This document shows positions 21,580 through 24,724 of a DNA stretch of 50,368 bases, one piece after another (position 1 is the stretch's first letter; each line of letters opens with the position of its first letter). Made by a program: the position numbers and the translations under genes. Origin of the DNA: an uncultured Gammaproteobacteria bacterium (GTDB taxonomy: Bacteria; Patescibacteriota; Patescibacteriia; UBA1558; GWA2-36-10); NCBI GenBank assembly GCA_964533435.1, contig CAZHLU010000001.1:1-50368 (forward strand). Reading direction: 5' to 3'. The notes under the pieces are model-generated. The model did not search any database and was not told where the DNA came from. It saw only the letters and a program-made list of their open reading frames with translations.

Positions 21580-21690
21580 AACAAAAAACAACCTAGTACT
21601 AGATTGTCTATTGGAGACCGCTCTTCAATCCGTCTCCGCCAGTGGGCGGATGGTGGATTTAGGGCAAGCTCATTAAAAATTTAGTTTTTT
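21580..21690. repeat. att-like direct repeat (distal copy) of the tRNA-Cys island
   Basis: AACAAAAAACAACC...GTCTATTGGAGACCGC...GGGCAAGCTCATTAAAAATTTAG aligns with 24522-24612. Carries an extra G+C-rich hairpin at 21629-21657. Confidence 0.7.
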
Positions 21691-21700
21691 AATGTTAATA

Positions 21701-22006
21701 TTAGATTTGATCTTTTACTAAGTTTTCTAATAAAGGTTTTATTATTTTTTCTAATATGTCTTCATCAGAAAACATTTCTCCCAATTTTTGCAAAAATTCT
21801 TGTCTTTCTATTTCATTTATTTCTTCCCAAGGGTTGAATTTTAGATGTTTTTCAAGCTCAATAGGTGTATCAATACTTTTTTGATCAAAATCAATTCTAA
21901 TACATTTTACTTCGAGCGCTCTTTCTTTACCAATGTAAGGGATGTCATCTTTATTTATTAGTAAAATTTGTTGCGACAGTTTTGCTATAGGGTAAATTTC
22001 ATTCAT
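21701..22006 (-). CDS. small acidic protein (immunity-like), unknown function
   Basis: 101 aa. Starts 1 nt after the stop of the upstream 440-aa gene. Last gene of the island operon. Confidence 0.55.
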   Translation of the reverse strand: MNEIYPIAKLSQQILLINKDDIPYIGKERALEVKCIRIDFDQKSIDTPIELEKHLKFNPWEEINEIERQEFLQKLGEMFSDEDILEKIIKPLLENLVKDQI

Positions 22007-22007
22007 A

Positions 22008-23330
22008 TTAAAATTCGATTAATTCAATTTTTGATTCTGGATGTTGTTTTTTATATTCATTAAAAATACGGCGTATTTCTTGTATTTGTTCTGGAGTTAA
22101 ACTGTTATTAACAGAGATATGTATAGATTCAATATCTTCCATAGTTAACTGATTGTGAAATTGAGCTTCAGTATAATCATAAGCCCAGACGCTAGACCTG
22201 ACAAGGTTTTTTCCTTCGGGGTCAACTAGTTTTTTATAGTCAAAATAATAACTTTCTATATCTAAACTCGTAAAGTGTGGTTTAATAGCCGGTGTTGGTG
22301 GCCAATGGTTTTGAGGGCCAAGGCTATCATGAAAGGTGATAGTTGCCTTTTTTAGGGCATTTGATTTTTTGATCTTAAAATTTATAGCTCCGTACCAATT
22401 GACATTTGTAGGAGGTGGTATTTTGCCAACTCCATTAATAGCGCCGTGTGTTTCATCAGAAAAATAACCATAAATTGGTCGATGTTCTTTATCTTTTTCT
22501 AAGTCATCAAGAAAGCCAAACATGGCATTTTCCGCCCTAGCTCTATATTCTGGATTAAGTGTTCCTTGGCTAGTATGAGTTTCAAATTGGCTTTTCCAAC
22601 GACCATCAACATTTAGTATTCTTTCGAAAACATTAAAATGAGTAGCTCTAAAAAAGTCTGATTGCCCAACCATTTCTTCTACTTTAGCTTGTAGAATAGT
22701 TTTAAAATCTTCAACACTAATACCAAGATCAGCGGCAGCTCTTTCATAGGCTCTAGCATGTCTTTTTTCGGCAGCTAGTATATTTTGGCGGATCGTTTCT
22801 TTTAATTCGGCGTTACCCTCAATTTCTAAATCATCCCAATTTTCAAAATAATTATAGGTAGCAATAGATTCATAATTTCCACGATCAGTTTTTTCCGCAG
22901 TAGTGTTATTTGTGTCTGCTATTTCAGTCATAGTAGCGGAGACGCTTGATTCAGCTATTTCTTCAGCAATTTCAGCTAAGACTGTACTAACGCTCGGTTC
23001 AATCTTTTTTGGTTTTTGAGTCTTGGTCTCTTCTTCTGGTTTCATATCGGCTTCTATCTCGGCAATTTTAGCTAAGATAGCGGAGGCGCTGGGCTCTACT
23101 TCTTCGTCTGTTCTGGCTTCAACGTTTTTTTCAGAAGTAGTATCATCTAAGTCTGCTATTTCAGTTATAGTAGCAGAGGCGCTTGGTTCAGCTATTTCTT
23201 CCTCTGTAGTATGTCTTACGTCACTAATTTTAGCCCTAAAGGCTTTTAGTATTCCTCGAGCTAAACGATCAATCTCAGTAGTCTTTATTTTAGTATCTAC
23301 AGTTTTTGGTAGAGCAATTTTTTCAAGCAT
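22008..23330 (-). CDS. repeat-containing protein with DUF3626-like C-terminal domain
   Basis: 440 aa. Four acidic EPSASA(T/I)xxEIA-type repeats. The C-terminal ~290 aa has KSQFETHTSQGTL, RPIYGYF and TFHDSLG, recalling the DUF3626 signature (from memory). Confidence 0.6.
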   Translation of the reverse strand: MLEKIALPKTVDTKIKTTEIDRLARGILKAFRAKISDVRHTTEEEIAEPSASATITEIADLDDTTSEKNVEARTDEEVEPSASAILAKIAEIEADMKPEEETKTQKPKKIEPSVSTVLAEIAEEIAESSVSATMTEIADTNNTTAEKTDRGNYESIATYNYFENWDDLEIEGNAELKETIRQNILAAEKRHARAYERAAADLGISVEDFKTILQAKVEEMVGQSDFFRATHFNVFERILNVDGRWKSQFETHTSQGTLNPEYRARAENAMFGFLDDLEKDKEHRPIYGYFSDETHGAINGVGKIPPPTNVNWYGAINFKIKKSNALKKATITFHDSLGPQNHWPPTPAIKPHFTSLDIESYYFDYKKLVDPEGKNLVRSSVWAYDYTEAQFHNQLTMEDIESIHISVNNSLTPEQIQEIRRIFNEYKKQHPESKIELIEF

Positions 23331-23334
23331 ATTT

Positions 23335-24468
23335 TTATCTATAAGTGATTTTCCAGCCCATTACATAAGAGGTGTCAGCTCTTGATTCTAATATTAATTC
23401 ATCATCGGCTTCAATTTTTCCATTTTCAAGATGAGGCCCACCAGCGATTATGCCTTGGGGAGGTATATTTGCATTTTTTATAAACCATTCAGTGTTATTA
23501 TTTTTTGCTCTTTTTAATCCCACCCAAAGTTTTGCCCATCCTAAGCGAGTGTTGCGGTAAGTTTCCGGGTTAAGGTGATCCAAGTATTCAGTATCGCCAA
23601 TAGCAATTTCCACGTTTAGTAATTCTTTGCCGGGCTCTAATTTTATAATTAGTTTACCATTTTCTATTCTAGCATCTGGTCCAGGATCGCTAGCAGTTTC
23701 AAATAAAGGAGGCTTTGTTTGATTTAGAGGTATAGAGCCTACATATCTTCCTTCATTAAATTCACCAGCTCCATATCTTGGTAGTAATTCGTTTTTTTGT
23801 AAATCTACAAATTTAGTCCCTTCTGTATATATGCGTTGGTTAGAATCAACTGACTCAACATCTGGGTAGAATACTACTTCAATTCCATGTATATTGGACA
23901 CGCTGTATTCGGGACTCTTGCCTACATTAGTAAGCCGAACAGCGTCGGCCATAATTTTACCAACTGTTGCTATCCAATCATGTAAAACTTCTTCTTCGGG
24001 GTTACCTGCTTCTCTGGTCTCGGCAAATTTATCAGTTCTGTATCCAGCTGGGTCTTTCCATTCTAGCCATCTTTGTTCGTTAATATCGTGTAATTCTACA
24101 CGACTATAAGCTCCATTTGGGTCATATCCATCTGGACCGATATCTACAGTATATTTATGATTTTTTCTATGTCTCAAAATCACATCTCTAATGATGCGTC
24201 TCTTAAATTCAGCTGGTATTTTAAAAAGTAATTGGCGACCAGGCTTTAATTCTCGGCCTTCATATTCTGGCACTGGGAAAGAAATTCTAGTGTATGAGTC
24301 AATTTCTGGTTTATCAAAAACCAAATCAATGCTTGGATCATTAAATTCGGTAGCCTCTAAAGCGGCCTTAGTTTTATCTGATAGGTCATCTAAAATATTA
24401 GCAAAAGACTGGTCTTTTGGAGATAGGCCTGCTTGTATTTTGATGCTATCTGGCATTTCAGTGCTCAT
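23335..24468 (-). CDS. hypothetical 377-aa protein
   Basis: First gene of the island operon. TTGCTT-17-TATTAT promoter on the minus strand at 24483-24511. No family recognised. Confidence 0.55.
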   Translation of the reverse strand: MSTEMPDSIKIQAGLSPKDQSFANILDDLSDKTKAALEATEFNDPSIDLVFDKPEIDSYTRISFPVPEYEGRELKPGRQLLFKIPAEFKRRIIRDVILRHRKNHKYTVDIGPDGYDPNGAYSRVELHDINEQRWLEWKDPAGYRTDKFAETREAGNPEEEVLHDWIATVGKIMADAVRLTNVGKSPEYSVSNIHGIEVVFYPDVESVDSNQRIYTEGTKFVDLQKNELLPRYGAGEFNEGRYVGSIPLNQTKPPLFETASDPGPDARIENGKLIIKLEPGKELLNVEIAIGDTEYLDHLNPETYRNTRLGWAKLWVGLKRAKNNNTEWFIKNANIPPQGIIAGGPHLENGKIEADDELILESRADTSYVMGWKITYR

Positions 24469-24521
24469 AAGCGTGTGTATATATAATACAAATGTTTTAA
24501 ATTTTAAGCAAATATTTATTT

Positions 24522-24612
24522 AACAAAAAACAACCCTATTCAGGATGTCTATTGGAGGCCACCCTTCGACTTCGCTCAGGGCAAGCTCGTAAAAAATTTA
24601 GTTTATTTTTAA
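24522..24612. repeat. att-like direct repeat (proximal copy) with a tRNA-Cys 3'-end duplicate
   Basis: CTATTGGAGGCCAC (24549-24562) is identical to 24647-24660, the tRNA-Cys 3' end plus 4 nt. Confidence 0.75.
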
Positions 24613-24650
24613 TAAAAAAGTTATTGTTTTATTTTTGGCATTATTACTAT

Positions 24651-24724
24651 TGGAGGCCACGGCCGGAATCGAACCGGCGATAAAGGTTTTGCAGACCTCT
24701 GCCTTACCACTTGGCTACGTGGCC
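24651..24724 (-). tRNA. tRNA-Cys (GCA)
   Basis: Reverse complement reads GGCCACG TA GCC..GGC A GAGGT CTGCAAA ACCTT ... GCCGG TTCGATT CCGGC CGTGGCC T CCA. Confidence 0.9.

Follow-up and report, generated by a model that had tools for sequence, protein, structure and literature searches.

What are three adjoining genes doing beside a tRNA-Cys gene in a bacterium of the Candidate Phyla Radiation (CPR, or Patescibacteria), and how did they come to lie there? The genes, here called A, B, and C, form a cassette of ~2.9 kb on the minus strand of a 50,368-bp contig, which as a whole is referred to as the window. The reading that we favour, with somewhat more belief than doubt, is a mobile conflict cassette of Patescibacteria that pairs an ADP-ribosyltransferase (ART) toxin with a neutraliser and adds an accessory protein. 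On this reading, B would be an NAD-dependent ADP-ribosyltransferase toxin behind a disordered acidic repeat region; C, translationally coupled to B, would bind and neutralise it, in an arrangement that puts the toxin gene in front, as DarTG does; and A would be an accessory part such as a sensor, a specificity subunit, or a regulatory subunit.

The open reading frame (ORF) list places gene A (377 aa) at 23335-24468, gene B (440 aa) at 22008-23330, and gene C (101 aa) at 21701-22006, all on the minus strand. Spacing is 4 nt between A and B and 1 nt between B and C, with C starting 1 nt past the stop codon of B, in agreement with the three-gene minus-strand operon described in an earlier note on this DNA. 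The same note had placed a promoter at 24483-24511, and the minus strand reads there as a -35 hexamer TTGCTT (24506-24511), a 17-nt spacer, and a -10 hexamer TATTAT (24483-24488). It escaped a simple promoter scan, since the -35 hexamer matches at 3/6 positions only; the motif TTGCTTAAAC...TATTAT is nonetheless kept 5' of gene A in the related loci L001, L005, L006, L027, L030, and L031, and we retain the promoter. A 3.5-kb part of the window was 99.97-100% identical to independent assemblies, and a structure that recurs near-identically in this way is not an assembly artefact. An Rfam search at a permissive threshold over 18.5-26.5 kb returned tRNAs and nothing else.

Protein B carries the functional argument. 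Against the Pfam family DUF3626 (PF12294) it scored 27.7 bits, marginally above the gathering cut-off of 27.0, in a partial match that pairs B residues 239-336 with profile positions 22-112 of 301; many B homologues carry a precomputed PF12294 label. An AlphaFold model built on an alignment of 52 sequences showed acidic repeats, disordered or helical, in residues 1-150 and a confidently folded region (pLDDT >90) in residues 150-440. When this model was compared with the PDB by Foldseek, the top match was the SopF-NAD-ARF1 complex (7dn9_A; E 1.1e-6, probability 1.00, TMt 0.51, 313 columns), and next in rank came several DarT structures (E 2e-4 to 4e-3, TMt ~0.5, best 0.52) at 14% identity. As modelled, the C-terminal ~290 aa of B is an ADP-ribosyltransferase fold of the SopF/DarT/phage-head-ART clade. 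Both features claimed before for the 440-aa protein were thus recovered, the DUF3626-like C-terminal domain by Pfam score and Foldseek fold, and the acidic tandem repeats as 76-nt units at 22889 and 23126 that are 86% identical. By sequence, no similarity between B and SopF was detectable with phmmer or with a profile search against PDB sequences, and the same two kinds of search against solved structures gave nothing meaningful for A, B, or C. A PADLOC match of B to 'mad2' was a weak tail match (E 7e-4), which we judged not meaningful.

The Salmonella effector SopF belongs to DUF3626 (PMC6682159), and an I-Y-E triad has been reported for it (PMC10333799). In B, residues I286 (RPIYGYF), Y313 (NWYG), and E388 (YTEAQ) are invariant or nearly so among homologues and, judged from the aligned sequences, are compatible with a candidate I-Y-E triad.

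The B domain has relatives in phages. A comparison by hhalign with the ART of Mycobacterium phage Tierra gp9, annotated as 'capsid maturation protease and ADP-ribosyltransferase', gave 96.9% and E 1.5e-10, and tblastn found matches in four phages (E 5e-13 to 3e-4), including the C-terminal end of a minor capsid protein from a Streptococcus phage. A small overlapping ORF lies downstream of both the Tierra gp9 ART and the Streptococcus phage ART. Among 1.84 billion representatives, a HMMER scan recovered 1197 B-domain relatives, in which the domain is usually C-terminal on proteins of 300-3745 aa. Six long relatives were scanned for further domains: one carried EAD7 alone, and the other five carried Kinase-PolyVal, NUDIX, topoisomerase IB, DUF5661, or a second ART. 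The extra N-terminal part of the long B variants showed no known domain. An enzymatic module that recurs at the C-terminus of varied carrier proteins in phages and mobile elements is a mark of conflict effector or toxin domains (PMC9503650), and the C-terminal position of the B domain on polyvalent-type proteins is therefore the signature of a conflict effector module.

This phage kinship could also mean that the cassette is the remnant of a larger integrated element, a prophage or conjugative element that once had an integrase at tRNA-Cys, in which B would be an injected anti-defence or takeover effector and C an inhibitor acting inside the cell; the cassette would then be no module in its own right. 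Domains of the B family commonly occur in phage head fusions and polyvalent proteins, the cassette matched PHROG 8314, and it sits at a tRNA gene with repeats of the tRNA end and with a frameshifted gene as neighbour. We nevertheless regard such an origin as improbable. A and C had no PHROG match; no recombinase, transposase, phage, or conjugation genes were found within 5-6 kb of the cassette in any of the ~28 distinct loci that we compared; and the compact unit from promoter to C stop codon recurs in many genomes with sharp borders and its own flanking repeats.

Homologues of A, B, and C come almost entirely from metagenome bins of Patescibacteria/CPR (Parcubacteria, Azambacteria, Collierbacteria, and metagenome-assembled genomes (MAGs) labelled 'Saccharibacteria'). 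The order A-B-C is kept in L001, L002, L005, L006, and many short metagenome contigs, where identity to the window is 68-74% for A, 47-49% for B, and 65-69% for C. Neighbouring genes differ from locus to locus and represent at least four unrelated housekeeping contexts, among them ComEC/DivIC/LepA, rplU/RecR/DnaB, and EF-Ts/RsmB. In other loci the arrangement changes: the order is B-C-A in L042/L054, A is convergent with B-C in L016/L038/L039, and A is missing from the B-C loci L036, L040, L041, and L043-L050; conversely, other Parcubacteria and MAGs of Myxococcales/Deltaproteobacteria have A but no B-C. C, by comparison, lies 1-40 nt downstream of every complete B gene. Because C is always with B and A is variable, the B-C pair is the invariant unit and A a frequent but dispensable and re-orientable accessory. 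Co-conservation of the trio, which the earlier note had asked to be checked in gene neighbourhoods, therefore holds for gene order in at least four contexts, but as an invariant association it narrows to B and C.

Protein C (101 aa, isoelectric point (pI) 4.65) has a conserved motif, ELEKHLKFNPWEE, in its alignment and is conserved more strongly than B across loci. It had no match in Pfam, NCBIfam, PADLOC, PHROGs, or PDB profiles. From its size, acidity, and linkage to B, C is most likely a putative neutraliser, that is, an antitoxin or immunity protein, of B. The earlier argument that a large enzyme-like protein followed by a small acidic partner points to a toxin/immunity or effector/chaperone pair holds, since C lies downstream of B in every complete locus.

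Protein A, which had been described as belonging to no recognisable family, indeed found no match in Pfam, NCBIfam, PADLOC, or PHROGs, and its profile found none among PDB sequences. Its AlphaFold model (pLDDT 89.4, pTM 0.83) comprises a disordered N-terminus followed by two tandem beta-sandwich (jelly-roll/lectin-like) domains. The best Foldseek match was PNGase F (E 2e-8), but at a TM of only 0.24-0.28 and a root-mean-square deviation of 13-14 Å; the others were generic beta-sandwich, lectin-, carbohydrate-binding-module (CBM)-, or tail-fibre-like structures. We also considered a double-jelly-roll capsid protein and rejected it, as Foldseek searches of the PDB and BFVD gave generic beta-sandwich, lectin, and tail-fibre matches with TM <=0.3. 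Among 87 clusters of homologues, 42 columns of A are invariant, with many D/E/H/R/W residues; this hints at either an enzyme or a specific binding protein. A is probably cytoplasmic.

Several loci that hold A in other company were recorded. Distant homologues (30-35% identity) in non-CPR MAGs (L017 5653-11733 and L020 5152-8433) adjoin a DpdE/ZorD-like SNF2 helicase and a WYL-WCX regulator; the helicase was called by PADLOC at E 2.5e-188, and the surroundings resemble a defence island. In Parcubacteria loci with A only (L010 2788-6477, L011 3670-7074, L012 3005-7032, and L013 3697-8164), a 630-850-aa protein of no known kind and a ~115-aa protein precede A. A short segment of the large L010 protein, YRVDNGGSLNFRAQG, recurs in the additional N-terminal domain by which B variants of ~600 aa, P0025 for example, are extended. 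The two ORFs were considered as divergent forms of B and C, and this was rejected because hhalign and BLASTP found no homology except for the short N-terminal stretch.

The resemblance of A to PNGase F, an amidase acting on N-glycosidic linkages, allows a reading in which the genes form an endogenous, reversible ADP-ribosylation switch, with B as writer, A as a glycoamidase-type eraser, and C as regulator of a housekeeping target. An ADP-ribosylglycohydrolase does lie directly after A in one A-only locus (L013). We consider this reading very unlikely: the TM to PNGase F is as low as given above, the cassette is patchy, mobile, and absent from close relatives, and A is dispensable in many B-C loci.

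The beta-sandwich fold of A, akin to carbohydrate-binding and tail-fibre modules, could suit delivery to another cell. CPR cells are episymbionts, and B might be an effector exported to the partner cell, with C as chaperone or self-protection and A as lectin-like adhesin or delivery factor attaching to the surface of the partner. The closest solved structure to B is that of a type III secretion system (T3SS) effector, SopF; the long disordered acidic N-terminus of B is of a kind that often serves as a translocation signal; and genes for a type IV pilus or type II secretion system (T2SS)-like apparatus lie nearby in the window. The pilus genes, however, are conserved housekeeping neighbours that are present in cassette-free relatives as well. 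None of the N-termini of A, B, and C, which we read directly, resembles a signal peptide, and no transmembrane segment was apparent in their sequences. CPR genomes are not known to encode a T3SS. The patchy, mobile distribution and the strict coupling of B and C fit an addiction or immunity module better, and we judge export to a partner to be unlikely.

How the cassette reached its position was approached through relatives of the site, located by the flanking inositol monophosphatase (IMPase) gene. In L072 (IMPase 74% identity), IMPase, tRNA-Cys, tRNA-Gly(GCC), tRNA-Leu(UAA), and PolA follow one another in the same orientation without cargo. In L074/L075 (IMPase 72% identity), IMPase and tRNA-Cys are followed by three reverse-strand genes, an inverted tRNA-Leu and tRNA-Gly, and PolA. 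Read in the same orientation, the window has IMPase, tRNA-Cys, A-B-C, reverse-strand genes for a histidine phosphatase and a major facilitator superfamily (MFS) transporter, the inverted tRNA-Leu and tRNA-Gly, and PolA; its tRNA-Cys is the ortholog of that in L072 and L074. The tRNA-Gly/tRNA-Leu pair is therefore inverted in the window and L074 relative to L072, and the MFS/phosphatase cargo is absent from both. As the site is empty in L072 and holds other cargo in L074, it behaves as an insertion hot spot. The search for empty sites that the earlier note had suggested accordingly succeeded among relatives, with L072 unoccupied and L074 differently filled.

In the window, the variable cargo extends over 18984-24650, 5.6 kb between the convergent 3' ends of tRNA-Leu and tRNA-Cys. 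On the plus strand, tRNA-Gly(GCC) and tRNA-Leu(UAA) were called at 18697-18981, the MFS transporter lies at 19390-20619, and the histidine phosphatase, frameshifted, at 20698-21503. A 2.9-kb island had been proposed; A-B-C is indeed bracketed by repeats, but the variable region is the larger one just described. The ORFs between the two tRNA genes are MFS, histidine phosphatase, A, B, and C, so the absence of a recombinase noted before stands, and any mobilisation must be in trans. The 17-mer CCTGAGCGAAGTCGAAG at 19073-19089 (plus strand; blastn E 3.6e-4 within the window) lies ~90 nt past tRNA-Leu, and its inverted partner at 24564-24580 (minus strand), in the middle repeat described below, lies ~90 nt past tRNA-Cys; the pair brackets the entire 5.6-kb cargo. 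The phosphatase passes from frame 0 to frame 2 near 21060-21080 and several independent assemblies annotate it as a fragment of 146 aa; it is therefore probably a pseudogene.

Further observations concern the site in relatives. The cargo of L074 (7148-8781) encodes a 219-aa protein of no known kind, a SLOG/LDcluster4 protein (PF18306), and a Trp-repressor-like helix-turn-helix protein, and may be another conflict-type cassette. At ~6830-7125 of the same locus, an insert of ~198 nt apparently interrupts an older tRNA-Cys behind the first base of the anticodon; the insert carries an intact tRNA-Cys (6891-6965), and the old 3' half and terminator come after it. In L076, the closest relative (IMPase 84%), a 25-nt duplicate of the tRNA-Cys 5' end and leader surrounds a 75-nt GC-rich hairpin insert at ~3830-3968. 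Four independent short contigs of the window's own strain end inside tRNA-Cys (L062, L064, and L066) or in its upstream leader (L065); the population may be heterogeneous downstream of this gene, or coverage may simply be low.

The tRNA-Cys(GCA) gene, with an encoded CCA, occupies 24651-24724 on the minus strand (ARAGORN; Rfam RF00005, 70.3 bits), and its 3' end faces the cassette. Its final 10 nt, including the CCA, and the 4-nt trailer (ATAG) make up the 14-mer CTATTGGAGGCCAC. As claimed before, three minus-strand copies are present: the proximal one at the end of the tRNA and its trailer (24647-24660), an exact middle copy at 24549-24562, and a distal copy with 2 mismatches at 21608-21621. 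Three matches in the window compare with 0.12 expected by chance, and 0/100 shuffles gave three. The middle and distal copies lie, again as described, in direct repeats of about 90-110 bp, which we place on the minus strand at ~24512-24612 and ~21570-21690. The middle repeat contains the exact 14-mer and a terminator-like hairpin with T-run (24522-24548); the distal repeat contains the diverged 14-mer, a hairpin at 21614-21671, and a terminator hairpin with T-run at ~21576-21609. The blocks common to both, AACAAAAAACAACC, TGTCTATTGGAG, and AGGGCAAGCTC.T.AAAAATTTAGTTT, are located on both sides of the 14-mer; the two repeats differ by a 24-nt indel, and each, on the minus-strand reading, runs through a hairpin to a T-run at its end. 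In the distal repeat, the tRNA-like sequence forms the 3' strand of the 21614-21671 hairpin, which folds at -37 kcal/mol (z = -5.1 against shuffles). Outside the 10+4 nt, neither copy aligned with tRNA-Cys; the tRNA derivation of the repeats is thus upheld for 10 nt of tRNA end and 4 nt of trailer but goes no further.

Between tRNA-Cys and the middle copy lies an AT-rich insert of 84 nt (24563-24646, minus strand); a second copy of its promoter-proximal part, TTACGAGCTTGCCCT, occurs in the distal repeat. A small insertion that targeted the tRNA 3' end probably left this insert as a relic, and such a decayed insert is plausible because an intact insert that regenerates a tRNA end exists in L041. 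This GIY-YIG insert (L041 1913-2420) is 421 nt long, lies at the 3' end of tRNA-Met beside a B-C cassette, and contains an intact 86-aa GIY-YIG gene (Pfam E 3e-17). The 3' end of tRNA-Met recurs exactly at its flank (14 nt according to the search, ~21 nt on reading the sequence), and the insert resembles a small element of the homing type by which the tRNA end is restored. The trailer after the middle 14-mer (ATAGACATCCTG) is similar to the native tRNA-Cys trailer of L072 (TTGACATTCTG), whereas the trailer after the real tRNA is not, which fits the middle copy being the displaced original 3' flank.

Across loci, the cassette is associated with tRNA genes, whose density is 0.83/kb within 600 nt of it and 0.09/kb farther out (~nine-fold); the 3' end of the nearest tRNA points toward the cassette in 10/12 loci. 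In every informative locus, flanking repeats abut one common core that begins with the -35 hexamer and ends with the C stop codon, while the kind of repeat differs. The window has ~100-nt direct repeats, and L002 has a 48-nt direct repeat made up of the final 22 nt of rplU together with its terminator. In L001, L005, L006, L026, L027, L030, and L031, the cassette is flanked by inverted repeats of ~330 nt that are conserved across genomes with different neighbours. They start near GAGTAT.T.TAC...GCTCGAAC, end inwardly at the -35 sequence TTGCTTA on one side and at the C stop codon on the other, and are rich in GC palindromes; the arms in L006 (308 nt) are 100% identical. Their positions are 4457-4836 and 7520-7877 in L001, 4415-4836 and 7548-7910 in L005, and 5519-5885 and 8568-8918 in L006.

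Copies of a tRNA end between the tRNA and the cassette were found in L005 and L041. As a genome-wide feature such copies were rejected, since they accompanied 4/48 tRNAs against 2/48 in the control; three of the four face a cassette. In L048, a GC-rich palindrome, CTGCCTGCCGCCTGCC...GGCAGGCAGG, was seen at 4738-4985 and 6612-6690, on both sides of a segment with tRNA-Gly(CCC) and B-C, and apparent tRNA 5' and 3' fragments surround this segment.

The flanking repeats of the window might have formed without any integration, as local duplications of a structured tRNA trailer and terminator through slippage, unequal exchange, or hairpin repair, in which case they would not be attachment (att) sites. 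The window itself offers a parallel: at 18851-18885, ~100 nt past tRNA-Gly(GCC), lies a mimic of the 3' end of that tRNA (CGCTCCAATTT); it makes up the 3' arm of the hairpin GGAGCG...CGCTCC and is built like the repeats near tRNA-Cys. The great stability of the hairpin and terminator in the distal repeat, the 14-25-nt tRNA-end duplicates around small inserts in relatives, and the inverted rather than direct flanks of other cassettes point in the same direction. Local duplication is possible but, in our view, doubtful. What the window repeats enclose is precisely the conserved core of the cassette; in L002, another gene has undergone an independent target duplication of 48 nt; and the tRNA-Met 3'-end duplicate of L041 flanks an intact GIY-YIG gene and hence a genuine mobile insert.

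Under the favoured reading of a mobile toxin/neutraliser cassette, its arrival in the hot spot would have duplicated ~100 nt comprising the tRNA-Cys 3' end, trailer, and terminator. Since such a duplication includes the terminator, the tRNA and the cassette would each keep one. A later small insertion, now the 84-nt relic, would have moved the tRNA away from the middle copy. A bolder version, which we put forward tentatively and hold to be rather less probable, sees a three-component CPR conflict system consisting of an ART toxin, a new family of small acidic inhibitors, and a tandem beta-sandwich enzyme or sensor, all carried on a recombinase-less cassette that targets tRNA 3' flanks and is bounded by ~330-nt inverted repeats or long target duplications.

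A number of points weigh against the favoured reading. Regarding function, the toxicity of B and its neutralisation by C are predictions from fold and gene linkage, and I286/Y313/E388 are a candidate equivalent of the SopF triad, assigned from conservation. The ART domain of B is acidic (pI 5.4), which is unexpected for a DNA-modifying enzyme of the DarT type, and PADLOC identified no known defence system in the cassette. C resembles none of the known families of antitoxins or immunity proteins, is neither a macrodomain nor a NADAR protein, and is not homologous to the small ORF that follows the ART of the Streptococcus phage; as it lacks a macrodomain and NADAR, neutralisation would be by binding and not by enzymatic reversal. 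Regarding mobility, the GC content of the cassette does not differ from that of its flanks. Within the species, contigs with identical flanking proteins all either carry the island or break inside tRNA-Cys, and none shows an empty site. When the window was searched by nhmmer with a profile of the ~330-nt repeat, no counterpart came up (best E 1.5). In none of the 10 other tRNA-adjacent cases does a copy of the tRNA end lie beyond the cassette; the feature is therefore confined to the window (1/11), so that tRNA att-type integration is not general. The succession of at least two att integrations proposed in the earlier note is plausible but falls short of proof.

Should the favoured reading be correct, the conserved mobile ART cassette offers a concrete, testable conflict system for the CPR, whose members have tiny genomes and are almost unstudied experimentally. 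The B-C pair, if it acts as predicted, would extend ART toxin-antitoxin systems past the paradigm of macrodomain and NADAR antitoxins, and B links the orphan family DUF3626, that of SopF, to the effectors of phage heads and polyvalent proteins. A and C are unannotated, new protein families for which structure models are confident or readily obtainable. The combination of long inverted repeats, tRNA association, and no recombinase raises the question of how small cassettes move in CPR genomes. If a recombinase-less cassette does target tRNA flanks, a mobilisation mechanism beyond known integrases and transposases is implied, and interest would grow further if the recombinase-less mobility of the sister cassettes, bounded by terminal inverted repeats (TIRs), proved to be a distinct mechanism.

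Among known systems, the Salmonella T3SS1 effector SopF (PDB 7DN8/7DN9) resembles B in the threshold match to DUF3626 and in the fold, a relation at the level of fold and Pfam threshold only; the conserved I, Y, and E residues of B are compatible with its triad. SopF differs in its T3SS, eukaryotic host, and ARF cofactor, and B in its acidic repeat N-terminus and obligate partner C. Phage head ART fusions of the MuF/capsid-maturation-protease type and polyvalent proteins (Iyer, Burroughs & Aravind 2017; PMC9503650) contain a domain homologous to that of B, and a small ORF follows the phage versions. B, in contrast, is stand-alone and chromosomal, has no MuF, portal, or protease module, and is paired with C, which is no homolog of the phage small ORF; its N-terminal 150 aa, disordered in the model, matched no domain in Pfam and contain no MuF/head or other trafficking domain.

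As for mobility, the window resembles integrase-type tRNA islands in its tRNA 3' end, the direct repeats with the tRNA end at both borders, the variable site, and the tandem copies that suggest repeated events. It differs from them in having neither an integrase nor a compositional signal and in repeats of ~100 nt that reach well past the 14 nt derived from the tRNA, while the sister cassettes depart from tRNA islands through their inverted repeats or another target. A DNA transposon bounded by TIRs is a poor model as well, since the window has no TIR match and no locus has a transposase.

In its logic the cassette is akin to DarTG and to pairs of a polymorphic toxin and its immunity protein, although it lacks the defining features of both. 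In DarTG an ART-fold toxin comes first and its neutraliser directly downstream, and that system is likewise mobile and patchy. PADLOC found no match to DarT in B, so the likeness is at fold level only, and the cassette differs in that C lacks a macrodomain or NADAR, the B domain is acidic, and a third protein, A, is often present. The literature that we searched on DUF3626 describes nothing of this kind. Built around a SopF/DarT-like ADP-ribosylating enzyme and a constant small acidic partner, the cassette is probably a variation on the toxin-antitoxin pair rather than a new kind of system.

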